Shown: in pieces, positions 8,756 to 48,495 of the stretch | Position numbering within the stretch: the first letter of the stretch is position 1 | Layout: every line of letters begins with the position of its first letter | Source of the DNA: Lautropia sp. | GTDB taxonomy: Bacteria > Pseudomonadota > Gammaproteobacteria > Burkholderiales > Burkholderiaceae_E | Reading direction: 5' to 3' | Assembly: GCA_030530775.1 (NCBI GenBank) | Contig: JAUMUG010000007.1 | Span: 10,690-74,689, forward strand | Length of the DNA: 64,000 bases | Translations under genes and position numbers: made by a program | Notes under the pieces: generated by a model | Seen by the model: only the letters and a program-made list of their open reading frames with translations | The model's database searches: none | Told to the model about the DNA's origin: nothing

Positions 8756-8965
8756 ACGCCCCTGCGGCAGCCACTGCCCCAGATACCGAGGCTGGAGCAC
8801 GGTCCGATCCCCTCTGCCGTACCAAGATGCTCGATCCCCTGGAGCCCGGATCATGAAAGTCGCGCAGCAAATCACCCCATCGAACGCCGTATACGCACTG
8901 GTCGCTGCCATCGGTCTTCATCCGGCACCCTATCCTGTTCCTCCGCTTCTTTGCCCTTTGTTTCG

Positions 8966-13334: not shown

Positions 13335-13421
13335 CGCGATGTCCACAGTCCGTGGTTTACGCTTGACAAGTCAGGTGTGTCAGTTGGGTGCGCGTGCGCG
13401 CCCACGAAAGGAGAGAGAGAA

Positions 13422-15374: not shown

Positions 15375-15469
15375 GTCACTCCAGCACTTCCGCCAGCCGT
15401 ACGACATGACGAATGTGCGGCTGGCGTTTTCGTTTGTCATGATGAATTCCGTTTGCTTCGGTGCAAGAC

Positions 15470-18112: not shown

Positions 18113-18184
18113 TGACGCACGCAGATGCCACACAGCCATCGATCATGCACACTGGACCGACGACAGTACCGGCGACCAACCCTC

Positions 18185-25606: not shown

Positions 25607-26647
25607 TCAAGGCTTCCTGACCCCCACGACTTCGATGCTGACTCGGCGATCCGGCTGCAGACACTGCAAAACATCGTCCCGATCACGTGGATTCAGCTCC
25701 TGACAAGCGGAAGGTTCGACCGGAACCGCACCCATCGGCACCATCGCCATCGGATGCGTCACGCCCAAGCGTTGCAGCTCGTCTCGAACAGTCATCGCAC
25801 GCTGCATCGACAGACGAGTATTGTAGTTGGCATTACCCATACGATCGGCATAACCGATCAGATTCAGACTGTCGATACGGACATACTGTGCCTTCAGTTC
25901 CTCGGCAAAGGAGCGCAGCTGTGCCAAATCTGACGGCAGGATATCATTGACGCCGTACTGATCAAAGAGGAAACGCACCTCCAAATTCGCCACCGAAGTA
26001 GCGATCTCAGCAACTGATGCTCCACCCGTCTGGCATTGTTTGGCCGCCTGTTCCGCTTCTGCCGTCAAGTCCTCGGCAATCTGAATATAGGGGCTGGCAT
26101 GCCGCCACCCACCCTGACGAATCTCATTTCCGGCATGTACCAGCTCGACTTCGGCACATGCCAACCGAGCCGCCGCGCAGCTCAGACCTTCCGAATTGCG
26201 GATCTGGACGTGGCGAGACCACAGATCATCGCGCAGGCGACGAGCTTTGTTGACCAGCGGTGTTTCGCTGACATCAGGCATCACACCACGCTCAAGTTGC
26301 GTCAGGATATCCTGCGCCTGATGCAAGGCAGCCTTCGGAAACCCGCCCCGGTCATTACGGCTGTACTCATGAAAGCTTACATCCAGCCAGCACTGTGCCT
26401 TGGCCAAGGCATAGTTGTCGAGTCTGATGCCCTGTTTGGAATTCAAATTGGCAATGCGAGCCTGAGTTTCACGATAGACCCCCTGGTCACGAGCGACCTG
26501 TGCCTCTTCGATTTTTTCAAAAGAAGATGCTGCCGTCGACGACTGTCCATCCGTGCTACTGTCTTTGACTGCGGAGGAATTGGCGCATGCCCCCAGCAAC
26601 ACCGACAGTAGAACTGCTGTAGACGTTGTTCGAATGGCTCTTTTCAT
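25607..26647 (-). CDS. OmpA-family lipoprotein with DUF4398-like N-terminal domain
   Basis: Start at MKRAIRTTSTAVLLSVLLGAC (lipobox). C-terminal OmpA peptidoglycan-binding domain (...NLIGYADRMGNANYNTRLSMQRAMTVRDEL...PDRRVSIEVVG). Confidence 0.8.
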   Translation of the reverse strand: MKRAIRTTSTAVLLSVLLGACANSSAVKDSSTDGQSSTAASSFEKIEEAQVARDQGVYRETQARIANLNSKQGIRLDNYALAKAQCWLDVSFHEYSRNDRGGFPKAALHQAQDILTQLERGVMPDVSETPLVNKARRLRDDLWSRHVQIRNSEGLSCAAARLACAEVELVHAGNEIRQGGWRHASPYIQIAEDLTAEAEQAAKQCQTGGASVAEIATSVANLEVRFLFDQYGVNDILPSDLAQLRSFAEELKAQYVRIDSLNLIGYADRMGNANYNTRLSMQRAMTVRDELQRLGVTHPMAMVPMGAVPVEPSACQELNPRDRDDVLQCLQPDRRVSIEVVGVRKP

Positions 26648-26892
26648 GGTTCTGATCGTCGACCGGCAGGATGGATAGACGCTGTCCGCTAAATAAGGTT
26701 GGAACACTCCTCAAATTAAAGGAAGCGACAGAACTTGCCTGCAGCATACCGACAAAAGGCAAAGTAAGGCCGATACACAGCGCCTGAATATGTCGGTAAC
26801 CATCAACATACCAACAGCACACGGCTCCGCCCCAAAGTCGGATCCATTCATCCAGCTCCTCATACACTTCGTCGAGTGTCACATTGGCCAGC

Positions 26893-29693: not shown

Positions 29694-31400
29694 TCAGGCA
29701 GCGGCTGGCTCGGGGCTGTGCGCCTCGGGCACCGGCTGATTGGCCGGTATGGCGTTGTTCTCACGCCGGGAAGCGGCAATCAGCCGATCCGACAGCCGAA
29801 GCGCCAGCGCCACGAGAGTCATGGTCGGATGGTTGGACGAAGATGTCGGAAACACGGAAGAGCCGGCAACGTACAGGTTGGCCATGCCATGCACCTGGCA
29901 ATTGCGATCCACCACGCCATGGCGCGGCGAATCATGCATCCGGGTCGTGCCCATGTGGTGATAGGTGCCTTCCATGTCAGTAGGCCAACCAGTGTCGTTG
30001 ATAGCGGGCCCCAGCTTCACCCGGGCGATGTTCTTGTCCTCGAGTTCACGGGCGATCAGATCGAAAGTAGTGTCGACGGTGTCTCGCACCCGCTGTGTCA
30101 GTCGCCAGTCGACCTTGGCGCGCCGCATGCCCAGCGCATCGATATCGTCACCCAACATGACCCGGCTGTTATAGTCCGGTTCCGGCTCGGCGATCATTTC
30201 CATCGTAACTGAACGCACCATGCGCCGCGAGCTGCAGGTATGGGCGATCACATATTCCAGCGAATCCATCGGGTGCCCGAAAAGATGGCCGAGGTCAGTG
30301 CCTAGACCGACGATCGGCGACCATTTGCCTAGCACTCGTTGGCGCATCCGGTAGAGCGCCCGCGAAATATGTCCGCCTTCACCTGCATAGAGCGAACGGA
30401 ACCAGACCTGGGCATCCAGCAAGCCATGCTGCTTTTGGACAGCCAACGGCAGGCGCAACTGGCCAGAAATCTTGTTGTCACCGATGATCAGGTCATCCAC
30501 GATGATGTGAAACTTGATGTCATACAGTGGATTGAAGCGATAGGGCTCGTTGAATTCGACCACCCCGTTCATGAATCGGGGGTGATCCTGAAAATAGCGG
30601 CCGACCAGATCGTAGCGGTTGCCGATGCCGTTGCTGTGCTGGCGGTTGGAGGCCAACATCAGCCGCGCGTTCTCGATACCCCCCGCGGCCAAAATGAAGG
30701 TCTTTGCACGCACAGTGGCGCTCACGCCCTTGAGCGTCCGAATCCGCACGCTTTCCACCGCCCCACCCCAGGGATTGCACTGGATGTCGACGACGTTGGC
30801 TTTCAGGTAAAGCTTGACATGACGGGAACTTTTCAGTCCATTGCGGTGTGCTTCCCCCATCCGCAAAGGCGGGCTGAACTGGGAAACGATCTCTTCGACC
30901 CGTTCATGGTCTACAGGTAAACGGGTGGCATTGACCGGAAAATCTTTGCCGATACCCTGTGCAGGCTCGTCCCCCATGCCCACCCATTGCTCGGGCCGGT
31001 ATTCCTGCACCGGGATGTTGAGCACCTCATGGGAACGAGCGTAGTACTCGTCGAGATCTTCCCGCCCGATGGGCCAACCACTGGCATTGACCCAGGAGCG
31101 GTGCTCGAAGGCGCTTTGATCCCAGGGGCGGCAGAACCCCCCCCAGCAGTTGGTACTGCCGCCCAGAAAGCGGCTACGTGTTCCATCAGCAAAATCGTAA
31201 GGAATGCCGACACTACTGCCACGATAGAGATCCGAGGTCGCTTCGTCCCGGGAAAAGCCTCCGCTTTCCAGAATGGCGCAGTCGATACCGGCCTTCTCGA
31301 ACTCAAGTGCCATCGTGATCCCGGCGGCCCCTCCACCGATGATGCAAATTTCAGTTTGAATGATGGAACCCGTATCAATCTCGTTGGTATCGATAAGCAT
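29694..31400 (-). CDS. GMC-family FAD oxidoreductase (choline-dehydrogenase-like)
   Basis: Start moved to MLIDTNEIDTGSIIQTEICIIGGGAAGITMALEF (Rossmann GxGxxG). GMC signatures ...ILAAGGIENARLM... and ...GTTRMHDSPRHGVVDRNCQVHGMANLYVAGSSVFPT... Confidence 0.8.
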   Translation of the reverse strand: MLIDTNEIDTGSIIQTEICIIGGGAAGITMALEFEKAGIDCAILESGGFSRDEATSDLYRGSSVGIPYDFADGTRSRFLGGSTNCWGGFCRPWDQSAFEHRSWVNASGWPIGREDLDEYYARSHEVLNIPVQEYRPEQWVGMGDEPAQGIGKDFPVNATRLPVDHERVEEIVSQFSPPLRMGEAHRNGLKSSRHVKLYLKANVVDIQCNPWGGAVESVRIRTLKGVSATVRAKTFILAAGGIENARLMLASNRQHSNGIGNRYDLVGRYFQDHPRFMNGVVEFNEPYRFNPLYDIKFHIIVDDLIIGDNKISGQLRLPLAVQKQHGLLDAQVWFRSLYAGEGGHISRALYRMRQRVLGKWSPIVGLGTDLGHLFGHPMDSLEYVIAHTCSSRRMVRSVTMEMIAEPEPDYNSRVMLGDDIDALGMRRAKVDWRLTQRVRDTVDTTFDLIARELEDKNIARVKLGPAINDTGWPTDMEGTYHHMGTTRMHDSPRHGVVDRNCQVHGMANLYVAGSSVFPTSSSNHPTMTLVALALRLSDRLIAASRRENNAIPANQPVPEAHSPEPAAA

Positions 31401-31613
31401 GTAGAGCCCCCAAGGGCAGCAGACGAGAGAACCACATGATGGACTGGTCCGGATACATGGTCCGGATACACACAAGACACACAAGGCTCCCGATGAACCG
31501 CAGATCTGTTTCGGAAAACTGTTCAACAAGGGGAAAGTATAAGCGTGGTGTTGTAGGTGAGCGACTGTCAGTCTACTGCCATATTGATGAAATGCACGCT
31601 TTGGCACATTCCG

Positions 31614-32705: not shown

Positions 32706-33938
32706 TCAGAACCTGACGCCGAGCTCGCGGTAGACAGTCTGGATGCCGTCGATATAGCGTGCCCGACTGAAATTGCCGGCGCAACGCTCGCGGGCATGCC
32801 GCCCCATCTCCGCGATGTCGGAGTCCGGACGGGCAAAAACATCGGTCAGCACCTCCGCCAGCTTGTCGGCATCGCCACTGGGGAAGACCCAACCGGTTTC
32901 GGGAGTGATCATTTCAGGGATACCGCCGATATCGGCCCCTACGACCGGCGTACCACTGGCAAAGGCTTCGAGGATGCTCATCGGTGCGTTCTCATACCAC
33001 TCGCTGGGCAGCACCAGTGCACGTGCACCACGAACCTGCTGCCACAGGGCATCACCCGAACAGTAACCGAGCCATTCGATTCTGTCTGCGCCCGGCAATG
33101 CCTTGAGTTCGGCTTCGAGCGGACCGGTTCCAGCAATACGCAATTTGACTCCGGCCTTGGTGGCAGCCTTGACCAGAGTGGCAACCCCCTTCTCGACGAC
33201 CATGCGACCGGCAAACAGCACGTAGTCCCCCGGCTCGTAGGAAGGCTGGAAGATGCCGGCGTCGACGTAGTTGGGCACATAGGTGATCTGCTCTGCCGAC
33301 CAGCCCCACTCGATCAGCTTGTCACGATAGAACTGGGAAGGTGCGACGACCCGGTTGACGTTTTTCTTCCAGACGTCCATGAAACGGCTCAGCCCCGACT
33401 CGACCGCCACGATGATACTGGGCGCAAGCGAGTCGCGGATGCAGCGATGCTTGATCACGTTGACGACCGAGCCGGTCTTACATCGTTCACAGACCCCTTC
33501 GCTGTTCAGCATCTTGTAGGCCGGACAGGCGATCTTCAGGTCATGGGCGGTCAGGACGACCGGAATCCCTTCCTGGCGCAGAACCGGCAGCACCGACGGA
33601 GAGATGTGGTGATAGATGCCGTGCACATGCGCCACATCGGCAGGAAACACCGACAGCAGGCTGCGCAGTTTTTTCTGCGCTTCGAAGGAATAGATCGATT
33701 TGCAGGCTTTGACCACCTTGTCCTTCAGGCCATAGGAGTGGCCGAACTCCACTTCCTCGACGAAATACTGACTCCAGGGCGAAGGCAGGTTCTTGGGATG
33801 ATGCATCGACATCACCGCCGTTTCCCAACCCAGTTCCTTGAACAGAGCATCGTGCTCCAGGAACACGACGTCGGCTCCCCCACGTCGGTAATGGTAGGAA
33901 TTGAACGACAGCAGATGAGGGCGTGGTGATGATTTCAT
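32706..33938 (-). CDS. glycosyltransferase, GT4 (group 1) family
   Basis: GT-B fold: N-terminal ...VVLTAHDL... and C-terminal ...FAGRMVVEKGV...LVLPSEWYENAPMSILEAFASGTPVVGADIGGIPEMI... (EX7E region). Confidence 0.8.
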   Translation of the reverse strand: MKSSPRPHLLSFNSYHYRRGGADVVFLEHDALFKELGWETAVMSMHHPKNLPSPWSQYFVEEVEFGHSYGLKDKVVKACKSIYSFEAQKKLRSLLSVFPADVAHVHGIYHHISPSVLPVLRQEGIPVVLTAHDLKIACPAYKMLNSEGVCERCKTGSVVNVIKHRCIRDSLAPSIIVAVESGLSRFMDVWKKNVNRVVAPSQFYRDKLIEWGWSAEQITYVPNYVDAGIFQPSYEPGDYVLFAGRMVVEKGVATLVKAATKAGVKLRIAGTGPLEAELKALPGADRIEWLGYCSGDALWQQVRGARALVLPSEWYENAPMSILEAFASGTPVVGADIGGIPEMITPETGWVFPSGDADKLAEVLTDVFARPDSDIAEMGRHARERCAGNFSRARYIDGIQTVYRELGVRF

Positions 33939-34367: not shown

Positions 34368-35417
34368 ATGAAGCCCAAAATCGTTTTCGTGGTGATGTCC
34401 GCGATCCACAGTGTCGAGTCAGTTGCACAGCTTGCACGTGCACTGGCTCCTCATACCGTGGTGGTACATCACGACTTTAGTCAGACAGCCGAGTTCCCTC
34501 TGAACGAACCGAACGTCATTTTCGTGCCCAATCCAAAGCGCACGGGGTGGGCTATTTGGGGCTTCACCGAGGGGATTTTCCACGCGATTCAGTACGCGGT
34601 GGACAATCTGGAATTCGACTATCTGCAGATCCTGAGTCCGACCTGCCTGCCCATCAAGCCGATGAGCGCTTTCGAGGCGCACGTGGCATCCGGCAAGACC
34701 GATGTGGATTTTTCGTGGATCGACATGCTTGCCGACGAAGACGCGCTGATGTCGGTCGCGTACCGGGGATTCACGGCGGAAGGAACGCTGATTCATCGGG
34801 TGCTGCGGCGCTTGGTGCGCGTCTATTTCAACGATACACCGCTGAGACGGGACATCGCCGGCGTTCAGTTGCGTACCGGCGGTCAGCTGCGCCCGGACGG
34901 CAAGATGCGCTTTGCGGCGCGCGTCGCCCGGGCCGTCACCCGCGCCATGATCAACCCGAAGATCGGCGGTCATGTATTCACCAAGGATTTCCCCCCCTAC
35001 TACGGCTCGACCTGGTTCGGGGCGCATCGACCGGTGATCGAATGGGCGCTGCAACGCTTCGCCCAGCCTGACATCCAGTCGCATTTTCCGAAACTGACGA
35101 TCGCCGATGAATTCTTGATCCCTTCGCTCTTCAAATGCGGGGTGGCACAGCACGGTTTCAAAGATGGACCGATGAACCATTGCATCGTGACCTTCATCGA
35201 GGCCAATCCAGCCTGGCTGACAGACAACGACCTGGATACGTTACGTCAATCACCGGCATTCTTTGCCCGCAAATTTCCGGACGATCTCCACAATTCGACC
35301 CGGCACCGGGTTCTGTCCGAGCTGGTCGGCATGAGCGACGCCGACATCATGGGCAAGCCGACCGGGGCACCAGTCGATGCCCCCGAAGCACGATTGAGCG
35401 CCTCGACCGCAGGTTGA
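34368..35417 (+). CDS. GT14-like (core-2/I-branching-type) glycosyltransferase
   Basis: KIVFVVMSAIHSVESVAQLARALAPHTVVVHHDFSQ... resembles the Branch-domain consensus (ilvhk..eql.rll.aly.p.n.y.iHvD), as does ...RTGWAIWGFTEGIFHAIQYAV...FDYLQILSPTCLPIKP. Assigned by eye, not searched. Confidence 0.5.
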   Translation: MKPKIVFVVMSAIHSVESVAQLARALAPHTVVVHHDFSQTAEFPLNEPNVIFVPNPKRTGWAIWGFTEGIFHAIQYAVDNLEFDYLQILSPTCLPIKPMSAFEAHVASGKTDVDFSWIDMLADEDALMSVAYRGFTAEGTLIHRVLRRLVRVYFNDTPLRRDIAGVQLRTGGQLRPDGKMRFAARVARAVTRAMINPKIGGHVFTKDFPPYYGSTWFGAHRPVIEWALQRFAQPDIQSHFPKLTIADEFLIPSLFKCGVAQHGFKDGPMNHCIVTFIEANPAWLTDNDLDTLRQSPAFFARKFPDDLHNSTRHRVLSELVGMSDADIMGKPTGAPVDAPEARLSASTAG

Positions 35418-35774: not shown

Positions 35775-36911
35775 ATGGGACAGTACTCATCGGCATGGTT
35801 ACAACGATCCGTCCATCGCCGATTACAAAGTGCTTTCCCTTTCATAACGTTTCATTACAGGAAGCCGACCCTGCTCTCCATCATCGTCATCTCCCGCAAT
35901 CAGATCAAGACGATCGATATCTGCCTGGACAACATTCTGGCCGCGACCAAGGCCAGCGGTATCGACCGTCATGGATATGAGATCGTCTTCGTCGATTCCC
36001 GCTCTACCGATGGCACACCCGAACGAGTCAGGCGGCGGCAGGACGACCGGATCAGGATTGTTCACGTCACCGGTCACACGAACGCCGCCATTGCCCGCAA
36101 TGCAGGTGCTGCGGTGGCCAGGGGGGATGTATTCTTCTTCATCGATGGCGACATGGAAATCGGTGCCGACTTCTTGCGCCAAGCCTTCGATGCGGAGGGC
36201 AAACCCATCGCCCCCGTCATCATGGGCCAACTGCCCGAGAAGTTTTACGATACCAACTGGAAGCTGCTCTCCGAGGGGCCAGACCGTTACAAGGCCGATC
36301 ACGACCATTACCGGACCGAAATGGGTGGCAGTGCGATCATCCGACGGGATGTGTTCGAGGAAGTCGGCGGCTATCGTCCCGAATTGCGGGTCAATGAGGA
36401 TATCGACATCGGTCTGCGTCTGTCCGAAGCCGGTTACAAGACACGCATTCTGCCGGTGGTCATGGCCGTCCATCACACGATCGAATACTTCGACTGGTCC
36501 CGCCAGGGCCGGATGCTCTGGGATGGCAGCATGTGCTTTCCGGGCGCCGTCTGGCGTCGACATTGGAAGTACGCAGGCTATTGGCCGATTCTGATCTCTC
36601 ATCAGCGCCCGACGGTCGTGCTGTTGCTGTCGCTATTGCTGTCGGTCTTCGTCAGCCCGTGGTGGCTGCTCCTGTACTTGGGCTACATCGTCGCCAAAAA
36701 CCTGCGCCGGCCTGGCATCAGTCTGCTGCAAGATCTGGCGGGCACCACCGCTCGCAGTGTGGGCTTCCTGTTCGGCATGGTGTTCTTCTACCCCAAGCAC
36801 ATCCCTGCAGACAGAATCAGTTTCCGCGAAGAGCCGCCTTCTGCTGCCACACCCAAACCGAAACAGGTACAGGCCGAAAGCACACCGCCAGCCAAACCCC
36901 GCGCCGCCTGA
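35775..36911 (+). CDS. glycosyltransferase family 2 with C-terminal membrane domain
   Basis: GT-A signatures: ...LSIIVISRNQ..., ...VFVDSRSTDGT..., DGD (...FFFIDGDMEI...). C-terminal TM helices. Exact start uncertain. Confidence 0.75.
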   Translation: MGQYSSAWLQRSVHRRLQSAFPFITFHYRKPTLLSIIVISRNQIKTIDICLDNILAATKASGIDRHGYEIVFVDSRSTDGTPERVRRRQDDRIRIVHVTGHTNAAIARNAGAAVARGDVFFFIDGDMEIGADFLRQAFDAEGKPIAPVIMGQLPEKFYDTNWKLLSEGPDRYKADHDHYRTEMGGSAIIRRDVFEEVGGYRPELRVNEDIDIGLRLSEAGYKTRILPVVMAVHHTIEYFDWSRQGRMLWDGSMCFPGAVWRRHWKYAGYWPILISHQRPTVVLLLSLLLSVFVSPWWLLLYLGYIVAKNLRRPGISLLQDLAGTTARSVGFLFGMVFFYPKHIPADRISFREEPPSAATPKPKQVQAESTPPAKPRAA

Positions 36912-37065: not shown

Positions 37066-38652
37066 TCAAGACGACACGGCCGATGAGGATCGTCGCGCCT
37101 TTTCCGGCGAACCACCCCTCCGACGTTTCAGGACCGCTTTGAAGATTTTGACCTCTTCGGCGCGTGGACGCAGGGTCAAGGCACAGATCAGCAGATAGGC
37201 CAACGACCCGAGTGCGACACGCCACCACCATTGGTCGACGACGTCCTGCAGCAGTACCGCTGCCAGCAGGCCGATACAGGTGGCAAAAAGGCAGGCAAAT
37301 ACATGTTCGAGACTGCTCTTGTAGGGATAGCCGGTGCGGCCCAGCCAATAAATCACCATGATGTTGGCAAACACCAGGCCGACACAGTTGGCCGCAGGCA
37401 AGGCGATGATGCCGAACCGGGGGGCCATGGCCACCCCCAATAACAGAGAAAGCCCCAGGAAGGTATTGCTGAAAACCAGAAAGCCATAGCGCTCGACCGT
37501 ATGGCAGAGGTTGTCCAGCGTGTGACGCCAGGATTCGAGCACCATCACCAGACACATCAGCATGATCAGAGGGGCGGCATCGACGCCGTATTTGCCTTTC
37601 GACAGCCAGAGATAAATATCCCCGCCCCCCGAGGCAAAGACCGTGACCGCCCAGCCGATCAAGAACAGGTTGACCGTCAGTGCGGCGTTGGCCACGGTTT
37701 CCGCCTCTTTGAAGGAGCCGTTGGCCGAAAAACGCGCCGCCATCACCGGACGTACCATGCCATTGAACAGCTGTGCCGGCAGATAGCGCTGGAACTGATC
37801 GAAAATAGATTGCGCAAAACCGAACAATGCAACCTGCATCGGTGCAAACTGGTTGCCAGCCACCAGCCGGTTGACCACCCCGCCATAAGGCAGAATGATC
37901 AGCCCCTGTACGTGCCCCTTGATGCCGAAATCGATCATCCGGCGAATGTTGTTGCCCAGCCATTCACGTTGCACATCGACGTTCTCGACATCGCCCGGAG
38001 CTGGCCGGGTGGCACGATTGATACCCCAGCTCATCAGCACGGCGCCGATCACTTCACAGCCCACTTCCGAGAGAATCAGGTTGAACAACGTCATCTGGTC
38101 AACCCACAGCAAGACCAAGATGCAGATGAACTTGCTCACCGTCACGGCAGCGAAGGCGCTCTGTCCACGGGCCTGTTCCAGCATGGCCTCGAGCACCTGG
38201 AACTGGGAATTGGAAGCAGTCCGGAACAGCACCACCAACAGGTACAGCTGCAATTCGACCAGCCAGTTCCCGAGACTGAGCCAATCCGCCAGCCACAGCG
38301 GGAAGATGATCAGTACGACGACCGTCACCAAGATCAGCATCAGCCTCAAACCCATGGTGACGCCGATGACCCGGCGCAACGCCCAGCGATAGCGCAGGTT
38401 GAAGATTTCCGGCACGAAACGGGTCAGGATCTGCCCGGTGCCCACCGACGTCAGGGTCAACAGCACTTCGGTCAGCCCCAACAGCACCGAATACGCCGCA
38501 AATTCCGCAATCGGCAGATTCTGCACGATCAGGAACAGGGCTCCGACACCCGCGACCGAAGTCAGCGCCTTGCCCATCAGAAAGTGCTTCATACCAGCGG
38601 CGATCCGTCGGGCACTGTAAGGATTGTGGTCGGCGTTCTGAGACATCAGCAA
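37066..38652 (-). CDS. polysaccharide flippase (Wzx / MOP-superfamily 'polysaccharide biosynthesis protein')
   Basis: About 14 predicted TM helices with no soluble domain. Sits in the EPS locus between glycosyltransferase genes and the polymerase. Alternative start at 38592 (MKHFLMG...). Confidence 0.7.
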   Translation of the reverse strand: MLMSQNADHNPYSARRIAAGMKHFLMGKALTSVAGVGALFLIVQNLPIAEFAAYSVLLGLTEVLLTLTSVGTGQILTRFVPEIFNLRYRWALRRVIGVTMGLRLMLILVTVVVLIIFPLWLADWLSLGNWLVELQLYLLVVLFRTASNSQFQVLEAMLEQARGQSAFAAVTVSKFICILVLLWVDQMTLFNLILSEVGCEVIGAVLMSWGINRATRPAPGDVENVDVQREWLGNNIRRMIDFGIKGHVQGLIILPYGGVVNRLVAGNQFAPMQVALFGFAQSIFDQFQRYLPAQLFNGMVRPVMAARFSANGSFKEAETVANAALTVNLFLIGWAVTVFASGGGDIYLWLSKGKYGVDAAPLIMLMCLVMVLESWRHTLDNLCHTVERYGFLVFSNTFLGLSLLLGVAMAPRFGIIALPAANCVGLVFANIMVIYWLGRTGYPYKSSLEHVFACLFATCIGLLAAVLLQDVVDQWWWRVALGSLAYLLICALTLRPRAEEVKIFKAVLKRRRGGSPEKARRSSSAVSS

Positions 38653-39355
38653 ATTAGGTACAAGCGGACAAACGGCGGGAAAGCCACCCGTGCACGACAG
38701 ACGGCAATGACCTGTCTCGATACTCTGTGCGAGCTCAAGATATTGCGCGCCGCTCCTTTGCCAGCAAAAGACAAATCGATGGCCTGTCGATCAGGACCGA
38801 CCACGACCAGTTCCTCGTTGTTATCCATGGTGGCGGACATGCCACCCAGAGCTCCGAGCATCGCCCCGCCCTGCCAATGTTGAAGCCAACCGCCTGTGTG
38901 CATCTGCCGGCGGTCCGGAGGGCCCAAAGCTCATGTCGAGCTTGCCATTGTAGGCGGAGCGTCGCACCCACACCACTTTTGTACCTGCGTCAGCGTGTGA
39001 TTTGCCGCAAGAGCCTGCGGTCCTCAAGCAACAGCCCGGATCTTGACAAAACGTTGCAGCAAAGAAGGGCTTTTTTCCTCTCCTATTCTGAGCACCAATC
39101 TCACGCAATGAAAATTCTGAGCGAGCACTCGAATACAACCCCTTGAAAAGACACGTCAAAAATAGTGTCACGTGATTTTTCTCGCATTCCATCCCATGGG
39201 GGCAACCGCCCATCCTGTTGGCGTATCGCATCGTTCTGTAAGCCACTTAGAGTTCGTGTCGCCAAAAGAAGACACACCGACGCAACTCAGCAACAGTGAC
39301 GTTCTGCCGTTATTCGGAGATTCGTCTGTTTTGCACAACACAACGGACTCTAAGC

Positions 39356-42043
39356 ATGAATAAATACGATTTGACACATGATCAGATGCTGTCCACCGGG
39401 ACACCGACCTTCAATCCGCTCCAGGCGCCCCGGACACTGGTGGCCGTGTGCCTGAGCGCCGGTCTGCTGGCCGCCTGTGGCGGCAACGGCGGCAACGATC
39501 AAAGCGGGGCCAGCAACAATGCTGCCGGCCCGTCGACACTGGCTGTCGACACCAATGCGCTGACCGTCGCACAAGTTTTCCAGGACGAGCCGGCCGCTGG
39601 TCCAGTCATGCCTGCAGCCGACCATGAATCCATGTTCCATCCCGAGAAACTGACGCCGGCCGTCAACGTCACCGAAACGCAGCCCACCATCATCACCCCT
39701 CCTTCGGTCGTCACGGATGGTGGCACGGTGCGCGTCGGTAAAGCCGTCAACCGGACATTCGGCCAGTATCGCAATGGTTTCATCGTCTCCGTAAGCCGTA
39801 CGCTGGATGGCGTGGCCGTTCTGGACGGTGATCAGGAAAGCTATACACCGACCGAGGCCGACATCGGCAAGAAACTGGTCTATCACGAAACGGTGCTGAA
39901 CCCCGACACCAACGAGCGTATCGTGGCTTCCAGTGAGGCCATCACCGTAATCGGCGCCAGCACACCTGCGGCCATCAAGGCCCCGCAATTCTCGGTATCC
40001 GGCTCGATGGTCAAGGTCGGCACCCCGGTCACCCGGGTCAGCGGCACCTATGAACAGGGCGAACCGGTCGAACGCTTCCGTCTGCGAAACGGTGTCCGCA
40101 TCGAAAACAGCGGTGAAGACAGCTATACCCCCGTCGAAGCCGATATCGGCCAGCGCCTGATCTATGCAGAACGGGTTCAGAACCCGGTGACCGGCGAAAC
40201 CATTACAGTCTACAGCCAGGAAGTCATCGTTGCCGACGTCGACGGTTCGATTCCGCAAGCAGCCATCAGCCTGCCCAGCAGCCATACGACGGCCAACAAC
40301 ACTGCCACGGCAAAGAACAGCACATCCACCCGTCCGGTCGTGACCACCGCTCCCCGCTTTGCGCCGGCCAATACGATCATCATGGTCGGCACGCCGGTCA
40401 CCCGGGTGTCCGGCACCTATCAAAACGGTGTGGCCTATCAGGGCTTCCGTCTGCGCAACGGTGTGGAAATCCACAACGGCTACGGTGCAACCTACACCCC
40501 GGTTGCTGCCGATGTCGGGCAGAAGCTCGTCTACGGCGAACGCGTGCGCAACCCGCAGACCGGCGAAACCATCACCGTCTACAGCGCCGAAGTGACAGTC
40601 GTCGACGCAAAGGCGCCTTCGGTACGCAAAGCTCCGATCATCGCACTGGCCAGTCGTATCCGTCTGGGCAACACCCTGACCCCCACCACCGGTACTTATC
40701 GTGACGGCCAGGTGTACGAACGGCTGTGGATGCGTGACGGTGTGGCCATCGCTGGCGCCACCGGCACCAGCTACCGTCCAGTCCAGGCCGATGTCGGCAA
40801 GAATCTGACCTATGGCGAACGGGTCCGCAACACAGCCAACGGCAAGACGGCAACCTTCTACAGCGCTCCTGTCCGGATCGTGGGTCTCGACTTCCCGTCG
40901 ATGCACAGCCAGCCGAAAATGTCGGTCGGCACCGGCAATGCAGTCGTCGGCCAAACCGTGACCCGCACGATGGGCGTCTACAAGAACGGTACCGTGGCGC
41001 ATGCCCGCTGGTATGTCAATGGCGAAGAGCTCGGCTGGGGCCCCAGGTATACTCCGAAAGCCGCAGATGTGGGCAAAAGATTGGTGTATCGCGAGGAAGT
41101 GCACAGCCCGAGTGGCGAGATCGTCACTTTCTCGACGCCTGCTGCCACGGTGGTAGCAGCCCCTGCCAGTACCTCCACGGCATCGACCACTACCAACAGC
41201 ACATCGAGCAGCCAGAGCGCAGCCACGGGCAGCACCAGCGCCTCGTCTTCGCGCACCATCAACTCGGTGCAGACCATCATCGACGACATGCGTCTGGCCA
41301 ACGACAGCAAACTGGCCGGTGTGAATCAGAGCTACGGCTGGGCCAAGGGTCCGGGTCACGTGGTCATGGGCAACAATCCGCGCGGCAGCAACACGCCGAG
41401 CTACTGGAGCCCCTACAACACCGCCTATAAGAGCGATGCCTACTGGAAGGCGGTCATCCCCTGGGTCGTGGTGTTCGACGGCGAAGGCAATCAGGCCACC
41501 AACACCCGGGTTCAGATGCGCAATCTGAAGCTGTACATCAAACGCAAATCCACCAACAAGTGGGACAAACTGGTCGACGAGCGCGTTTCCGGCGCGAACT
41601 ATCCGAAATCCCTGCAAGGAGATAACGTCACAACCCCTGATCTGCGATACGAAACTGATGGAACCCGCTCGGTTCTGCCGAGCGGAGGCAACAACCTCTT
41701 CCACGGCTGGGGCAATATCGCCAACCTGGACGGATGGGATGTGCAGGCTGTATTCGTGACGATGCAGGCCCGGCTGGTGGTGAATGACACCAGCAAACCG
41801 GACGATCGCTCGAAGGCCCGCTACCTGATCCACATCGGTGGTGACTACTACCCCGAAACGTGGACCCGGGTCAGCCATCTGGCGCCGTCATACTACTTCC
41901 CGGGCATTGGCCTGTCCCGCGCGAAGTTTGTGACGAACGAATGGCAGTCCTACAACTTCGCCAACCTGGATATCGCTGTCCAGGAACCCGGCGGCTCGAT
42001 CACCACGCAGGAACTGCGCAGCAACCCGCCGCCGTTGGAATGA
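39356..42043 (+). CDS. large repeat-containing lipoprotein: five ~95-aa tandem repeats, Ser/Thr linker, C-terminal domain paralogous to the 4185-5012 product
   Basis: Lipobox LLAACGG. Five repeats of pattern VGtPVTRvSGTY..G....FRLRNGV.I....g.sYTPv.ADvG..LvY.ErV.NP.TGETItvYS.ev.Vv. Linker ASTSTASTTTNSTSSSQSAATGSTSASSS. The C-terminal ~260 aa share ...VQMRNLKLYIKRKSTNKWDKL... and ...LFHGWGNIANLDGWDVQAVFVTMQARLVV...HIGGDYYPE with the 4185-5012 protein. Confidence 0.7.
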   Translation: MNKYDLTHDQMLSTGTPTFNPLQAPRTLVAVCLSAGLLAACGGNGGNDQSGASNNAAGPSTLAVDTNALTVAQVFQDEPAAGPVMPAADHESMFHPEKLTPAVNVTETQPTIITPPSVVTDGGTVRVGKAVNRTFGQYRNGFIVSVSRTLDGVAVLDGDQESYTPTEADIGKKLVYHETVLNPDTNERIVASSEAITVIGASTPAAIKAPQFSVSGSMVKVGTPVTRVSGTYEQGEPVERFRLRNGVRIENSGEDSYTPVEADIGQRLIYAERVQNPVTGETITVYSQEVIVADVDGSIPQAAISLPSSHTTANNTATAKNSTSTRPVVTTAPRFAPANTIIMVGTPVTRVSGTYQNGVAYQGFRLRNGVEIHNGYGATYTPVAADVGQKLVYGERVRNPQTGETITVYSAEVTVVDAKAPSVRKAPIIALASRIRLGNTLTPTTGTYRDGQVYERLWMRDGVAIAGATGTSYRPVQADVGKNLTYGERVRNTANGKTATFYSAPVRIVGLDFPSMHSQPKMSVGTGNAVVGQTVTRTMGVYKNGTVAHARWYVNGEELGWGPRYTPKAADVGKRLVYREEVHSPSGEIVTFSTPAATVVAAPASTSTASTTTNSTSSSQSAATGSTSASSSRTINSVQTIIDDMRLANDSKLAGVNQSYGWAKGPGHVVMGNNPRGSNTPSYWSPYNTAYKSDAYWKAVIPWVVVFDGEGNQATNTRVQMRNLKLYIKRKSTNKWDKLVDERVSGANYPKSLQGDNVTTPDLRYETDGTRSVLPSGGNNLFHGWGNIANLDGWDVQAVFVTMQARLVVNDTSKPDDRSKARYLIHIGGDYYPETWTRVSHLAPSYYFPGIGLSRAKFVTNEWQSYNFANLDIAVQEPGGSITTQELRSNPPPLE

Positions 42044-42811
42044 CACGGCGGACCTGAAAGCTCGACACGAGCAATGACCGGCCACGGCTGGTCCGTCCGT
42101 GACCCGAGCCAGTCTCGTCTGCAGAGCATTCAGGCGTAACCTCCCAGGGGGAACCGGCCAGCCGGTTCCCCCTTTCTTTTCGAATGGGACCCGGTAAGCA
42201 AAGCGCCTGCTGCCGGCGCCCCGAATATGCCGGGCCAACCACTGGCACGGCTCGAGCAATGCGCACTTTCACGACGATTGCCCCACAGCAGCCGCTCGAT
42301 CTGACGGCAGTGTGGATATCCAGCGGCGATGAATCCACGACGCAAATGCCATGAAATCCATGCCCATAACTTCGACAGCCGGCAGCGACGGCCTGCAACG
42401 CGCCTCAGCCCGCCAAGAAAGCGGGAAAACGCCATACAACCGAAACGGATCGAGCACAAACCATGTCATGCAGCAGCATGGTCGGCGGTGATGGCTCCAC
42501 TGCCTGGCCGATACGCGTCCGCAGAACCAGGCCAGCAAACCAAACGCTCGAAGCATCGAGAAGCTGAAGACGGAAGTCCCTGCCCGACGCAGTTCATGAC
42601 CGATACAGCCCACGGCTGTTCGCTACTTCCTGGCAACAGCCCCGTATCGTTGCGCTTTGCGTCTCTCCCAGCGCCCACCATCTCATTCCATGCGTGCCAG
42701 AGGGATGCAAATCGCAAAGCGCGGATACGTGGTGAGAACGTATCCGCGCCATTGCATGTCCCGGACGTTGCCGGGCCTATCGTGCCGGAGAAAGCACCGG
42801 GACACCGGTAC

Positions 42812-45064
42812 TCAGAACTTCGTGGGCTTGATCCTCGGTTCGGTGCGCTGACCACTGCGATGCCGCTGCTGTTCAGCCAGATCGTCATCCGCGAACATCG
42901 GCCGCGTTTCCGGGCCGGAAACATCGATATTCGGCTCGCGCGGTCCTGGTGGCTGCACGGCAGCCGTCCGGGCGGGAGCCGACGCTGGACGGAAGGCGGT
43001 CTGCGACCGGGAAGCTACGGTGTTCCTTTGAGCCGTCATGCCGGCTATCGCCGCTCCCCGCCGTCCCCCGGCGCCAAAAGCTGCACCACGCGGGAAAGCC
43101 GACCGAGGTTGCTGTTCCGGTGTGCTGCCCTGGGCAGTTGCAGCCAGTCCTGGAACCGGTGCTCCGGATGCTCCGGGTACTCCCGGCGCGGCTGCCGACA
43201 CATCGGCGGCAGCCGTCGTATCATGGCCAGGGTCCGAACCCGCAAAGGAGCGTTTGATGCCCCCCGGTACACTCCCTTTGGGAAACGCCGAGCGGGCCGT
43301 TTCACCTGCAGCCACAGTATTCGGAACCGAAGGCACATCCTGCCCGGCTACGGTCGGTGCCATTTGACCGGCCCCCTCCGCCCCCCCCGGCAACAGACGC
43401 TGTGCACCGCGTTGGGCCGCCAGTTGAGCAGCCGGCAGAACTCCGTCGGTCGGGAATTCGACCTTACCGCCCCATTTGCTGGCAAAGCCACTGCCTGCAA
43501 AGCCCGGCCGCAAGGGAGCTCCTCCCCCGCCCCGACCCAATTCGGCAGCCGTCGGTGCCAACGGGCCATGGCGATAACGCCAGGCCACCAGACCCAGGGT
43601 GAAGAACATCAGGAAACCATGGCTGACCAGGATGACACCCGTATTGGAATACACCGACAGCAGCAGCGTAACCGCCAGACTGGCCATCAACGTGCGGCAC
43701 AGCACCCGATCCCATGCAGACTGGATTTCGCCGAAGCACTTGAGCACGATGCGGATGGCACCAAAAATCATGCTGTAGTACAACAGAGCACCGACAAGGC
43801 CAAAGTCCCACAGAATGGTCGAAGCCGACAACAGATCGATGTGCATCCCGGGATGAGCCACGAACATATGGCCCGGATCCGGCACCAGCGCATCCACACC
43901 GTAGGAGGAGCCCAGCCCCGTCCCAAACAGCGTGTGCATCGGGTTGTTCCAGGATTGGGACTCGAACCAATAGGGAATCGCTGTCAGACGGTTGACCCCG
44001 GTGGCGTAGTAGCTGCCGGAACCGAAGTTGTATTCGATGGTGTTCCGGATATTGTCAGCCGCGTTCATCTCGGCGATGTCACCCGCCACCTGCACGATGA
44101 AGTAGAAATATCCCAGGACCGCTCCAACGACAAGCGTGGCCACGACGATACCCAGAAAGGCCAGCGGCCGTTTGGACACCATGTCGAAATAAGCCGAGAA
44201 CAGAATGACCGGCACCAGGGCCATCACCACCTTGGTTTCACCCAGGCCCAGCGGCACGAGGAAGGCAGCCGCAAGCAACAGGGTGACGAAACCATTGAGC
44301 AGCCGCTCGCGCCAGGCGCAGAACACGCCGAATAGCATCAGCAGCTGGAACATGGCCATGATGGAGCTGGCGCCACCACCCGTCATCGACCCCTCGAAAG
44401 TGCCCACGATGATGTCGAAAGGCACGAAACCGGGTCGGTCGAAGGACATGACCTGCGGCACCAGTACGACCCGTTGGTACAGCGTGAACGGCAACTGAAC
44501 CAACGCCATACCAACCAGGAACAGCATCCAGCCCCTGACCTGACGTTCGGTGAACGGCACGACTGCCAGCAGGAACATCACGCCCCAGAACTGAAAGTGC
44601 CGCTTGGCACCACCCGCCAGCTCGTTCAGCGAGCCTTCCGAGAAAAAACTGGTGATGATGGCCAGCAGGATGAACGCAATGGCAGTGAAGATGAACGGTG
44701 GCAACGGCCGTTGGAAACGCTTGTTGCCAACGGCCGAATACAGCACGGCCGCCCCGGCCATGAAAATGCCCAGCAGCGAGAACAGCCACGAAATCCGCGC
44801 CATCCCTGGTGAAAAGAAGCCGACCGGGCCATTGATCAGCATGACGCCGATCAGCAGGATCCAGACAGCGATCGGCAAAGCATTGAGCAGCAGCAAACCG
44901 GCGATGCCCCCGAGAGCGAGGGCGATCAGGATCAGGTCGCCGGTGGCCACCACCAATCCGACGGCAGCACCTGCCGCCAGGAAAGCAGCCCCCATCATGA
45001 TCGGCAACCAGGGCTGATCACCATTGAGCAGGGGGATGCGGTTCAACAGGGATGAGTTCGACAT
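42812..45064 (-). CDS. Wzy-type polysaccharide polymerase / O-antigen-ligase-domain protein with ~270-aa Gly/Ala/Pro-rich C-terminal tail
   Basis: N-terminal ~480 aa have 10-12 TM helices plus the large periplasmic loop typical of Wzy_C proteins. The tail is low-complexity (RGGGGAPLRPGFAGSGFASK..., SAFPKGSVPGG..., SAFPRGAAFGAGG...). Adjacent to the chain-length determinant. Confidence 0.6.
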   Translation of the reverse strand: MSNSSLLNRIPLLNGDQPWLPIMMGAAFLAAGAAVGLVVATGDLILIALALGGIAGLLLLNALPIAVWILLIGVMLINGPVGFFSPGMARISWLFSLLGIFMAGAAVLYSAVGNKRFQRPLPPFIFTAIAFILLAIITSFFSEGSLNELAGGAKRHFQFWGVMFLLAVVPFTERQVRGWMLFLVGMALVQLPFTLYQRVVLVPQVMSFDRPGFVPFDIIVGTFEGSMTGGGASSIMAMFQLLMLFGVFCAWRERLLNGFVTLLLAAAFLVPLGLGETKVVMALVPVILFSAYFDMVSKRPLAFLGIVVATLVVGAVLGYFYFIVQVAGDIAEMNAADNIRNTIEYNFGSGSYYATGVNRLTAIPYWFESQSWNNPMHTLFGTGLGSSYGVDALVPDPGHMFVAHPGMHIDLLSASTILWDFGLVGALLYYSMIFGAIRIVLKCFGEIQSAWDRVLCRTLMASLAVTLLLSVYSNTGVILVSHGFLMFFTLGLVAWRYRHGPLAPTAAELGRGGGGAPLRPGFAGSGFASKWGGKVEFPTDGVLPAAQLAAQRGAQRLLPGGAEGAGQMAPTVAGQDVPSVPNTVAAGETARSAFPKGSVPGGIKRSFAGSDPGHDTTAAADVSAAAPGVPGASGAPVPGLAATAQGSTPEQQPRSAFPRGAAFGAGGRRGAAIAGMTAQRNTVASRSQTAFRPASAPARTAAVQPPGPREPNIDVSGPETRPMFADDDLAEQQRHRSGQRTEPRIKPTKF

Positions 45065-45076
45065 GCCGACAGGGGC

Positions 45077-46522
45077 TTAGTTACCAAGCCGCAGAGAAGG
45101 CGGGGTCACGGACGGGCCTGTACCACCGATGAGACGCTGGGCACGAGTCGACTGCGACGGCGGTAACACGGCCAACACAGGAATACCGGCAGCCTGCAGC
45201 AGATCGTCGGCATTGCGCAATGGACGCTGCGCGGCCTCGAGAGCAAAGGCAGCCAGAAGACCAATGAACAGACCCAGGAACAAGCCGACAGCCGTATTCA
45301 GGACCAGATTGGGGCGGCTGGGCAGCAACGGAGTGACGGCCGGTGTGATGACGCTGATATTGGAATAACCTGCGCTCATCCCCACGGTGGTTTCGGTCAG
45401 CCGGCGTGCCACCAAATCATAGGCTTTCTGCGCGCTGGCCAGATCCTGTTGCAGGATGGCGACCTGATCGCGCTTGCCACGCAGGCTGAGCACCTTGGCT
45501 TTCTGAGCTTCGACGGCAGCAACCAACTCTTTCTCGCGCTGCTGGTTGACGGTGTTGGCCGTACGGATGCTGGACTTGACGCGAGCCACCTCTGTCTGCA
45601 GGCGGGTGCGCAGTTCCTGCACTTCGGCCTGAGCCTGTAGACGAACCGGATGATTGGCACCATATTGAGCCGATGTCTGACCCAATTTGGCTTCGGCTTT
45701 GCCCAGCTCGGACGTCAGCGCCTGGATCAGCTCATTGGCAACGACTTCGGGAATGGCCATGTCCCCCCCGCGGCCGGCCACCGCACTGCGCGAACGGCTT
45801 TCCGACAGAGCGGCCTGCACCTGAACCAGCTGGGTGGACAGTTCCTGCAGACGCTGGTTTTCGACGTCGATGCGTTCATCACTGGTGATGATGCCACTCT
45901 CGCGCTGATAGTCGGTCAGCTTCTTCTGCGCTTCCTCGACGCGGATCTTGTATTCCTTGGCCTGTTCACCGAAGCGTTGGGCATATTCCTGGGCTGGCCT
46001 GGTCTTCAGATCGAGAGCGGCTGCCTTGTAGGCATTGGCAAAGCCGTTGGCGATCTGGGAGGCACGCTCGGCACCGGTCCACTCGGCCCGGATGGTGATC
46101 GTGGTGCCATCCGTGGAGGACGTGACCTTGATCGCCTTGAGCAAGTTGGTGGACAACCACTGGCTGATATCGCCACGGCCTTTGGTGGCACTCTGCCACT
46201 GGGCCCGGATATCTGCATCCTGATCCAGCTTCAGATCGCGGATGACACGGGAGACCACCTGATCACTTTGAATCAGCTCGGTCTGGCTTGCCAACATGTT
46301 ACGAATGGTCTCGCGCGAAAATGCCGGCGCTCCGGATACCTGATCGACCGTGTTGGCATCGACATAGACGGTGGTGGCGGCACTGTAGCGCTTGCTCATC
46401 AGCAGGCTGCCGGTAATGGCTGTCAGGGTCGTGACGGCCACGATGGCAGCAACCAGCCAAAACCGGGATCTAAGAATTCCAAAAAGCAAATCGAAACGCA
46501 TGGGGCTACCTGGAAAAGGCAC
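45077..46522 (-). CDS. polysaccharide chain-length determinant protein (Wzz / GumC / EpsF family)
   Basis: N-terminal TM helix, Wzz domain, long coiled-coil periplasmic region (...QRLQELSTQLVQVQAALSE..., ...VQELRTRLQTEVARVKSSI...), C-terminal TM helix, then Pro-rich tail. No fused kinase domain. Confidence 0.8.
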   Translation of the reverse strand: MPFPGSPMRFDLLFGILRSRFWLVAAIVAVTTLTAITGSLLMSKRYSAATTVYVDANTVDQVSGAPAFSRETIRNMLASQTELIQSDQVVSRVIRDLKLDQDADIRAQWQSATKGRGDISQWLSTNLLKAIKVTSSTDGTTITIRAEWTGAERASQIANGFANAYKAAALDLKTRPAQEYAQRFGEQAKEYKIRVEEAQKKLTDYQRESGIITSDERIDVENQRLQELSTQLVQVQAALSESRSRSAVAGRGGDMAIPEVVANELIQALTSELGKAEAKLGQTSAQYGANHPVRLQAQAEVQELRTRLQTEVARVKSSIRTANTVNQQREKELVAAVEAQKAKVLSLRGKRDQVAILQQDLASAQKAYDLVARRLTETTVGMSAGYSNISVITPAVTPLLPSRPNLVLNTAVGLFLGLFIGLLAAFALEAAQRPLRNADDLLQAAGIPVLAVLPPSQSTRAQRLIGGTGPSVTPPSLRLGN

Positions 46523-47535: not shown

Positions 47536-48495
47536 ATGAACAACCCGATCGACCAAAACCCGACTGGCACTCCTTCGACCCATCCCGATGGTGGTCAGAC
47601 AGCGGGCAATGCTCTGATCAGCGAAAGCGCAAAACTGCCTGCCTTCAATGCAGCCAACCGCAAGACGCTGATGATGGGCGGTATTCTGGTTGCCAACGGC
47701 AAATTGCGACAGGACCAGATCGATCTGGTGCTGAATGAGCAGCGGGTCACCAACCTGCGCTTTGGTGAAACGGCCATCCGGATGCGCCTGGTTTCCCACG
47801 CAGATGTGGAAGAGGCGCTGGCCATCCAGTTCGGCTATTCGTCCTCCCGCGCCTCTGCCCTGGCACTACCCGACAAAGTGACCAGCGCCGTCAACCCCTA
47901 TTCGCCCTTTGCCGAGGCCCTGCGGGGCCTGCGCAGCCAGCTGATGACCCGCTGGTTCGACGGTACCCCCGAACGCTCGACCCTGTCGATCACCAGTGTG
48001 GACCGTGGCGATGGCAAGAGCTTCGTCTGTGCCAACCTGGGCGTGGCTTTTTCGCAGATCGGCCAGCGTACGCTGATCATCGACGGCGACCTGCGCCATC
48101 CCACCCAACACCTGAACTTCGGTCTGCGCAATCAGATGGGTCTGTCCGGCATTCTGAGTGGCCGAGCCGGTCTAGAAGAAGTGATGGAGTTCCCGACACT
48201 GCCGAACCTGTCGGTGCTACCCTCTGGCCCGCAGCCGCCGAATCCCCAGGAGCTTCTGGGCCGCGATATCTTCGCGGATCTGCTGCAAACCCTGTCGCAG
48301 CACTACGATGTGATCCTGATCGACACGCCCTCGGCTCAGGAAGCCTCGGACGCCATGGTGATCGGCCAGCGCGCCGGAGCAGCGCTGATCGTCGGCCGCA
48401 AGAACAAGACCAAAGCCACGGAAATCGCCCAGTTGGCCTCCGTGATGGCCAGCTCGCACATTGCGCTGCTGGGCGCATCCTTGAACGAGTACTGA
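47536..48495 (+). CDS. BY-kinase-type protein-tyrosine kinase, cytoplasmic subunit, PEP-CTERM-locus EpsG-like
   Basis: N-terminal GspE_N-like domain (...GGILVANGKLRQDQIDLVLNEQRV...LVSHADVEEALAIQFGY). P-loop SVDRGDGKSFVCANLG (Walker A), Walker A' ...IIDGDLRHP, Walker B ...VILIDTP. No TM segments, so it needs the separate Wzz-like partner. Confidence 0.8.
   Translation: MNNPIDQNPTGTPSTHPDGGQTAGNALISESAKLPAFNAANRKTLMMGGILVANGKLRQDQIDLVLNEQRVTNLRFGETAIRMRLVSHADVEEALAIQFGYSSSRASALALPDKVTSAVNPYSPFAEALRGLRSQLMTRWFDGTPERSTLSITSVDRGDGKSFVCANLGVAFSQIGQRTLIIDGDLRHPTQHLNFGLRNQMGLSGILSGRAGLEEVMEFPTLPNLSVLPSGPQPPNPQELLGRDIFADLLQTLSQHYDVILIDTPSAQEASDAMVIGQRAGAALIVGRKNKTKATEIAQLASVMASSHIALLGASLNEY

Follow-up and report, generated by a model that had tools for sequence, protein, structure and literature searches.

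Accessory proteins of exopolysaccharide (EPS) gene clusters include secreted proteins and lipoproteins that process glycans, such as ExoK (succinoglycan), PslG, PgaB, AlgL and BcsZ. Here we describe a gene at 39356..42043 (+) of a 64,000-nucleotide stretch of contig JAUMUG010000007.1 (hereafter the window) from Lautropia sp., an abundant and little studied oral bacterium, which lies within a polysaccharide locus that was delimited by domain scans of the neighboring open reading frames (ORFs) to ~25.6 to 48.5 kb of the window. In common with the five proteins above, its product is a non-glycosyltransferase, non-transporter protein that is conserved in a polysaccharide cluster and is predicted to be extracytoplasmic, and it resembles PgaB in being a putative lipid-anchored protein (here by a lipobox). 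It differs from all five in that no sequence or fold relation to GH16, GH39, GH153, PL5, GH8 or any other solved enzyme was found, and in having a long immunoglobulin (Ig)-like stalk, which is unusual for such enzymes. Judged by analogy, its closest functional counterparts would be ExoK, PslG, PgaB, AlgL, BcsZ, Wzi and PelC, and it is a member of none of their families. The real novelty of the protein is its C-terminal domain (hereafter the C-domain), which belongs to an unnamed family without a solved structural relative; the repeats that make up the stalk are not the novelty. Few bacterial loci have been mined as thoroughly as EPS and capsule clusters, yet this type of cluster has a conserved domain that has no name.

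The C-domain family

The C-domain comprises the last ~260 amino acids (aa) of the protein (aa 635-895; 41258..42040, +) and ends in PPPLE. In an initial search with the whole protein the domain was present only in the Lautropia-type matches. When a profile of the C-domain was searched against 1.84 billion representative proteins, 1,087 relatives (counted as representatives at 50% identity) were identified at E<=1e-3, with 679 of these at E<=1e-10, and they came from the Proteobacteria, Actinobacteria, Chloroflexi and Cyanobacteria as well as from type IX secretion system (T9SS) proteins of the Bacteroidota type. For the listed relatives the precomputed annotation showed no Pfam domain over the region, and wherever the source gave a name it was "hypothetical protein". 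The domain itself had no match in Pfam or NCBIfam, and 31 diverse members that were scanned singly shared no Pfam family. A search of all PDB sequences with the C-domain profile gave 0 matches at E<=10, and a PDB search with the whole protein returned noise only. There was also no match to the C-domain in the phage collection, which leaves an origin of the domain from a phage depolymerase or receptor-binding protein unsupported.

A first AlphaFold model of the C-domain, built from 10 close sequences, was mediocre (predicted local distance difference test score, pLDDT, of 68), whereas a model built from 31 diverse sequences was confident (pLDDT 94.7, predicted TM-score 0.92). In the latter model a multi-stranded beta-sandwich comes after a short helix at the N-terminus. 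Foldseek searches with it gave TM-scores of at most 0.29, the best of these weak matches being to TNF/C1q-type jelly rolls and carbohydrate-binding modules (CBMs), and no fold match to a solved carbohydrate-active enzyme or CBM was established. The protein does resemble the TNF/C1q-like heads (of the collagen-stalked BclA/C1q type) and the beta-sandwich CBMs in its general plan, a beta-sandwich head placed distally on a stalk, and one homologue of the C-domain has a stalk of collagen repeats as do some of those heads; it differs from them in the low TM-scores and in a C-domain that is about twice their size. Among sequences 34-61% identical to the domain in the window, residues G672, W736, G828, D830, R855, P892 and the terminal PPPL were invariant or near-invariant, as were N716, R718, H783, D795, D816, D817, R818, Y831, Y832 and K857. 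A role similar to that of a lytic polysaccharide monooxygenase was rejected on principle, because the C-domain is away from the mature N-terminus and therefore no histidine brace is possible.

In most members of the family the C-domain is preceded by nothing more than a signal peptide or lipobox and a linker of low complexity. In others the domain is fused to Ricin-B, CBM6/CBM35 or CBM4_9 modules, to GDSL/SGNH esterases, or to a GH3 glycosidase with a T9SS tail, and further fusions are to Big_2, to a metallophosphoesterase and, in one case (P0254), to a long collagen-repeat stalk. Three proteins (P0123, P0245 and P0363) have a carbohydrate-binding module and the C-domain and nothing else. Apart from the metallophosphoesterase and the collagen stalk, the fusion partners are glycan-related, and a glycan-directed role of the C-domain would fit this range of partners. 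Should the domain turn out to be enzymatic or a lectin, a new carbohydrate-active family would result, together with an annotation for thousands of "hypothetical proteins". The domain could also offer a way into the question of how the matrix of Lautropia is built or shed.

The gene and the layout of the precursor

The gene occupies most of an ORF at 39296-42043 (+), in which translation from the ATG at 39356 gives a complete product of 895 aa followed by a stop codon. This product is identical (100%, full length) to a "hypothetical protein" of an NCBI metagenome-assembled genome of Lautropia sp. (Q4A16_09220), which agrees with both the coordinates and the start site in the original prediction. 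No literature on this lipoprotein or on the genetics of Lautropia EPS was found. A signal peptide with a lipobox (39356..39478, +) was apparent from direct reading of the sequence: a basic n-region and a hydrophobic h-region precede the lipobox L-A-A-C (within LLAAC) with Cys41, which is followed by GGNGGNDQSG, and thus the 895-aa protein has the signal peptide ending in [LVI][ASTVI][GAS]C that is the mark of bacterial lipoproteins. The segment LLAACGG is the same in the Lautropia orthologues, and a lipobox is also present in most of the proteobacterial homologues that have only the C-domain. After Cys41 there is a tether rich in Gly, Asn, Ala and Pro (aa 42-109; 39479..39682, +) that has no match to the repeats or to any domain, the match to the repeat hidden Markov model (HMM) beginning at aa 110. 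The repeats are interrupted between the second and third copies by a linker rich in Ser, Thr and Asn (aa 298-326; 40247..40333, +), which is missing in the orthologue P0095, and are separated from the C-domain by a Ser/Thr-rich linker (aa 605-634; 41168..41257, +). The lipobox and this layout bear out the earlier description of the precursor as a lipoprotein with a tether, a repeat stalk, a Ser/Thr-rich linker and a distal globular domain of ~260 aa.

On the opposite strand an ORF of 842 aa (39350-41878, -) covers nearly the whole of the lipoprotein gene. We treated it as an artefact of the ~60% G+C content, because the product of the + strand has strong conserved homologues. The protein was also considered as a PEP-CTERM/exosortase substrate, because the EpsF and EpsG models that match neighboring genes derive from exosortase-linked loci; this reading was rejected, as the protein ends in ...RSNPPPLE without a hydrophobic segment and the scanned ORFs yielded no recognisable exosortase. 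About 100 nt past the stop codon a consensus scan alone identified a terminator-like hairpin (42146..42173, +) with a 12-bp stem that includes 9 G-C pairs and a T-rich tail.

The repeats and their relation to known Ig-like domains

Five tandem copies of a unit of ~92-94 aa lie between the tether and the second linker. An HMM was derived from the five copies and gave 124-141 bits for each of them: R1 (aa 110-203; 39683..39964) scored 132.6 bits, R2 (aa 204-297; 39965..40246) 140.2, R3 (aa 327-420; 40334..40615) 141.1, R4 (aa 421-513; 40616..40894) 130.1 and R5 (aa 514-604; 40895..41167) 123.7 bits, all on the + strand. The same HMM detected 5-6 copies in the orthologues. The motif Y[TR]P..AD[IV]G recurs at aa 163, 257, 380, 473 and 565, and the DNA repeat families, three of which (D1-D3) include R2, are spaced by 282, 369 and 279 nt. 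These motif positions, spacings and scores show that the five tandem ~95-aa repeats of the original prediction are real. The value of ~75% DNA identity that it gave for them was too high, however, since codon-aligned identity is 46-66% over whole repeats and reaches 65-82% in short cores only, and the protein identity from repeat to repeat is 29-57%, with the upper value being that of R2 to R3. The C-terminal third of the repeat (ERVRNPxTGExxTxYS) is specific to this subfamily.

The original prediction had regarded the repeat as an unrecognised domain family. The Pfam and NCBIfam scans recognised neither the whole protein nor any single repeat (no hit at E<=1-10). The protein and its five repeats fell short of the curated thresholds of IG_AIR9 (PF23197) and SCAB-Ig (PF16709), and among 26 orthologue repeats that were scanned against Pfam just one reached IG_AIR9, at E 0.05. 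Adhesin repeats of the Big or cadherin-like kind, which the original prediction had named as an example of a well-characterised family, also gave no match (Big_1, Big_2 and cadherin-like Pfam models) to the protein, its repeats or the 26 orthologue repeats. Comparisons between profiles nevertheless place the repeats in a named group. The whole-protein search had matched, through the repeats only, bacterial proteins of large size (E 1e-16 to 6e-48), and these distant proteins bear the Pfam domains IG_AIR9 (the AIR9 A9 domain), SCAB-Ig and Ig_2. In five of them (P0099, P0100, P0101, P0107 and P0110) the repeat-HMM matches coincide with stretches annotated as IG_AIR9, SCAB-Ig or Ig_2, for example residues 335-422 versus IG_AIR9 at 334-406 in P0110, and 465-538 versus 464-521 in P0107. 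When an alignment of 26 repeats of the present family (A3) was compared by hhalign with an alignment of 14 A9-type repeats from the distant repeat proteins (A4), the two profiles aligned with 98.3% probability (E 1.4e-14) over 55 of ~94 columns. Members of A4 on their own include four that match IG_AIR9 (one above the gathering score) and one that matches SCAB-Ig. The homology of the repeats to bona fide IG_AIR9/SCAB-Ig members was in this way established both profile to profile and transitively via intermediates.

Because the A3 and A4 profiles align and the repeat-HMM matches overlap Pfam-annotated stretches, the repeat is, as judged from sequence comparison, a divergent member of the named bacterial Ig-like AIR9-A9/SCAB-Ig group and neither a new family nor a new fold. 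It has in common with the A9 (PF23197) and SCAB-Ig (PF16709) repeats an arrangement in tandem units of ~80-95 aa, as in large bacterial surface proteins, and the core G-x-Y/W ... [WR]-x-R-x-G ... Y-x-P/L-x-x-x-D-x-G-x-x-[LI]; it differs in that the Pfam models miss the Lautropia repeats and in that the profile match is confined to the 55 columns. A9 domains are predicted to have Ig folds (PMC8625193). Searches of the PDB with the repeat profile gave sub-threshold matches only, the top ones being Ig-like decoration proteins of phages (E 0.05).

The number of repeats varies among the homologues (0, 1, 2, 3, 5 or 6), while the C-terminal domain is constant. R1-R5 occur in this order in close relatives; six copies are present in L. 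mirabilis, in which the R5 type is duplicated, and P0095 has five copies. P0121 has two copies, both of the R5 type, oral Propionibacteriaceae and Tessaracoccus have one of the R2/R3 type (the R3 type being the closest, at 53% identity, to the single repeat of the Propionibacteriaceae protein P0133), and most Burkholderiales have none. A variable number of Ig-like units before a constant head would fit a stalk that serves as a spacer, and the range from 0 to 6 repeats is a natural experiment on the working distance of the domain from the membrane. One metagenomic protein of 1058 aa (P0098) combines three repeats of this kind with another C-terminal region, to which a weak beta-propeller-like match was obtained, and lacks the C-domain; this indicates that the repeats are a movable module.

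Conservation of the gene in EPS clusters

The L. mirabilis orthologue (989 aa, 45% identical) occupies the corresponding position in a locus that is syntenic. A scan for related loci, seeded from the Lautropia sequences and limited to one genome per species, returned 28 loci, and in 20 of these 28 species homologues of at least two other EPS genes of the present locus were found within 10 kb of the C-domain gene (the genes counted were those for the GT1 glycosyltransferase, the Wzx-like protein, the 750-aa membrane protein, EpsF, EpsG and the GMC oxidoreductase). The other eight loci include two with a GMC homologue only and six with none; of the latter, two are contigs of <5 kb and three are from Propionibacteriaceae (one of these being also one of the short contigs). 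Independent look-ups of three stalk-less relatives (L005, L007 and L038) showed the same type of cluster, with additional genes for a priming transferase and a BcGHD hydrolase-like protein. Conserved co-location thus identifies the gene as an accessory to an EPS cluster of the Wzx/Wzy type that has EpsF and EpsG (a polysaccharide co-polymerase and a bacterial tyrosine kinase), and this, together with the L. mirabilis orthologue, upholds its earlier assignment to an EPS locus. The association holds for the subfamily of 45-79% identity and not for the C-domain family as a whole, and the suggestion that the protein is specific to this EPS system had to be given up, as the family spans phyla, with at least 1,087 representative clusters, and has some members outside EPS loci.

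In most other Lautropia a gene for a glycoside-hydrolase-like protein of 521 aa with an ASD1_dom (7737-9302 in locus L001) is situated between the Wzx-like gene and the C-domain gene. This gene is absent from the window and from the two closest relatives (L008 and L009), and no remnant of it could be detected at 38653-39355 of the window, an intergenic region of ~700 bp. The homologues in oral Propionibacteriaceae (L006/L034, both Tessaracoccus sp. OH4464_COT-324, L031 and L032) are secreted proteins with one R2/R3-type repeat and the C-domain. Their identity to the Lautropia protein is 45-47%, and their genes lie outside EPS loci. These copies may result from cross-phylum transfer within oral communities.

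Proposed role of the lipoprotein and alternative explanations

We propose an accessory role for the lipoprotein in an EPS cluster of the Wzx/Wzy type whose co-polymerase is EpsF and whose tyrosine kinase is EpsG. Once exported by the Sec pathway and lipidated at Cys41, the protein would be fixed by its lipid anchor to a membrane, and the flexible tether and the five Ig-like A9-type repeats would form a spacer of roughly 20 nm or more, given that there are five Ig-like units and that the usual value is ~4 nm per Ig domain. This spacer would set the C-terminal beta-sandwich domain away from the anchor, so that it touches the polysaccharide of the locus outside the cytoplasm, and the C-domain would then process the polymer by trimming, depolymerisation or chemical tailoring, thereby governing its release or chain length, much as ExoK, PslG or PgaB would do elsewhere. 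We infer the extracytoplasmic location, the role of the repeats as a stalk and the EPS as the substrate from the sequence features described above, and that the domain is catalytic instead of binding is our guess. As a whole, the reading of the C-domain as a glycan-active, EPS-processing module of a new family has in our estimate a probability of about 40%. Supporting catalysis are that the C-domain often stands alone behind a signal peptide and linker, that it is ~260 aa long compared with the usual 100-200 aa of binding modules, that some twelve charged or polar positions show little or no variation across sequences of 34-61% identity, and that some proteins (the three mentioned above) have only a CBM beside it. 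Several observations weigh against this reading. Neither in sequence nor in fold does the C-domain resemble a known carbohydrate-active enzyme or binding module, and for this reason its catalytic activity is purely inferred. A second glycanase would not be required, because related clusters already hold a glycoside-hydrolase-like gene (ASD1_dom in other Lautropia, BcGHD in L007 and L038). A distal head on an Ig-like or, as in P0254, collagen-like stalk is the classic layout of a lectin or adhesin, and some relatives are encoded outside EPS loci, with one beside flagellar/PilZ genes, a Tessaracoccus gene among housekeeping genes and a single copy on a Nostoc plasmid in an uninformative context.

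Pure binding is a close second to processing. The protein would in that case be a non-catalytic lectin or anchor for the EPS, a lipid-anchored stalk whose head binds the glycan and serves to retain, organise or pass on the polymer, either by retention of a capsule at the cell surface or as a guide for the chain that faces the periplasm (a role like that of Wzi, PelC, AlgK or the binding part of PgaB). We regard this explanation as tentative, though it accounts for the head-on-stalk layout, including the collagen repeats of P0254, for the nature of the best (weak) fold matches, which were TNF/C1q-type jelly rolls and CBMs, and for the several proteins in which the C-domain follows an SGNH esterase or accompanies a GH3 domain in the manner of a binding module. 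The separate glycoside-hydrolase-like genes in related clusters and the conserved membership of the EPS cluster agree with it also. It is less easily reconciled with the size of the domain, ~260 aa being large for a binding module, with the fact that the C-domain is very often the only domain of a protein, with its many conserved charged residues, with its fusion to bona fide CBMs in proteins that have no other catalytic domain, and with the lack of significant similarity to any lectin or CBM family.

If the head was directed outward to the salivary pellicle, host glycans or other oral bacteria, the protein would be an adhesin for host or partner cells that merely resides in the EPS locus. Stalks of Ig-like repeats are typical of adhesins, the distant homologues of the repeats are large surface proteins, the stalked versions occur in oral taxa (Lautropia and oral Propionibacteriaceae/Tessaracoccus) and some homologues are outside EPS loci, but a C-domain gene without the stalk is conserved in the same type of cluster in environmental (lake and soil) Burkholderiales, and the position of the gene has been kept across Lautropia species that are only 45% identical. 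We think an adhesin improbable. Still further down in likelihood, to the point that we would be surprised by it, is a glycoprotein acceptor or anchor, in which the Ser/Thr linkers would be O-glycosylated to give a lipid-anchored proteoglycan, with the repeat unit of the locus itself possibly being attached by the adjacent membrane protein of 12 segments acting as a ligase. Low-complexity linkers rich in Ser, Thr, Ala and Pro are found throughout the family, regions of this kind are the targets of O-glycosylation in Neisseria and Burkholderia, and the neighboring 750-aa membrane protein is without an assigned function; that neighbor, however, has no match to Wzy_C or a ligase, and the strongly conserved C-domain would be left unexplained.

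Returning to the C-domain as a processing module, we also considered a more far-reaching form of this proposal, namely that it founds a carbohydrate-active family that is new at the level of the fold, with a new mechanism of catalysis or recognition, and acts together with the GMC (AA3-like) and galactose-oxidase-like (AA5-like) oxidoreductases of the locus, for example by cleaving or cross-linking EPS after oxidation of sugar hydroxyls. We think this rather unlikely. As a new carbohydrate-active family the C-domain is a solid candidate. If the proposal was true, it would amount to an unrecognised extracytoplasmic route for the tailoring of bacterial exopolysaccharides.

Neighboring genes in the window

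The lipoprotein gene is on the strand opposite to the genes for membrane proteins that flank it on both sides. The upstream one (37066..38652, -), divergent to it, encodes a putative Wzx-type flippase of 528 aa with 10 hydrophobic segments and a weak match to the MATE family (MATE/MOP, E 1.6e-4), which is kept beside the C-domain gene in Lautropia and is present in distant loci as well. The downstream one (42812..45064, -), convergent to it, encodes a putative polymerase of 750 aa with 12 hydrophobic segments that belongs to an unannotated family; it had no match in Pfam, NCBIfam or the PDB, and its homologues, which are all hypothetical proteins, co-occur with the C-domain gene in related loci. 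The earlier placement of the gene between a Wzx flippase and a Wzy-like polymerase was therefore correct as to position, while the labels themselves are plausible, with a weak MATE match behind the first and no match behind the second. The 750-aa protein has an Ala/Gly/Pro-rich tail of ~250 aa, and across Lautropia the length of this protein ranges from 750 to 1021 aa.

Beyond these is the gene for an EpsF-type polysaccharide co-polymerase, or chain-length determinant (45077..46522, -), which has Pfam Wzz and GNVR matches and scored 418.7 bits to TIGR03017, just below the cut-off of 422.75 bits, followed by that for an EpsG-type tyrosine autokinase (47536..48495, +; TIGR03029 at E 6e-87 and TIGR01007 above the cut-off). 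The kinase has an MshE-related cyclic-di-GMP-binding motif in its N-terminal part (residues 47-98; NF053729, 40.4 bits with a cut-off of 38), and this motif suggests that the EPS system may be under the direct control of cyclic di-GMP. On the other side of the lipoprotein gene, Pfam scans identified a GT4/GT1 glycosyltransferase (32706-33938, -), a Branch-like glycosyltransferase (34368-35417, +) and a GT2 glycosyltransferase (35775-36911, +), all three of which are syntenic in L. mirabilis; a HAD hydrolase is also among the genes of the locus. Among the ORFs scanned between 25600 and 50300, a region that was not searched exhaustively, no Wza/OPX-type outer-membrane export gene was recognised. 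The only candidate for export at the locus is an OmpA-family protein (25607-26707, Pfam scan), and the export gene may lie elsewhere in the genome.

The Pfam scans also identified a galactose/glyoxal-oxidase-like protein (26997-28880, -) and a GMC oxidoreductase (29694-31607, -), and the presence of these two genes hints that the polymer is tailored by oxidation. In 13 related loci, too, a GMC homologue lies a few kb upstream of the C-domain gene. Upstream of the EPS locus there is a nos (nitrous-oxide reductase) cluster (13377-20615, +) with nosZ, nosR, nosD and an ABC ATPase gene.

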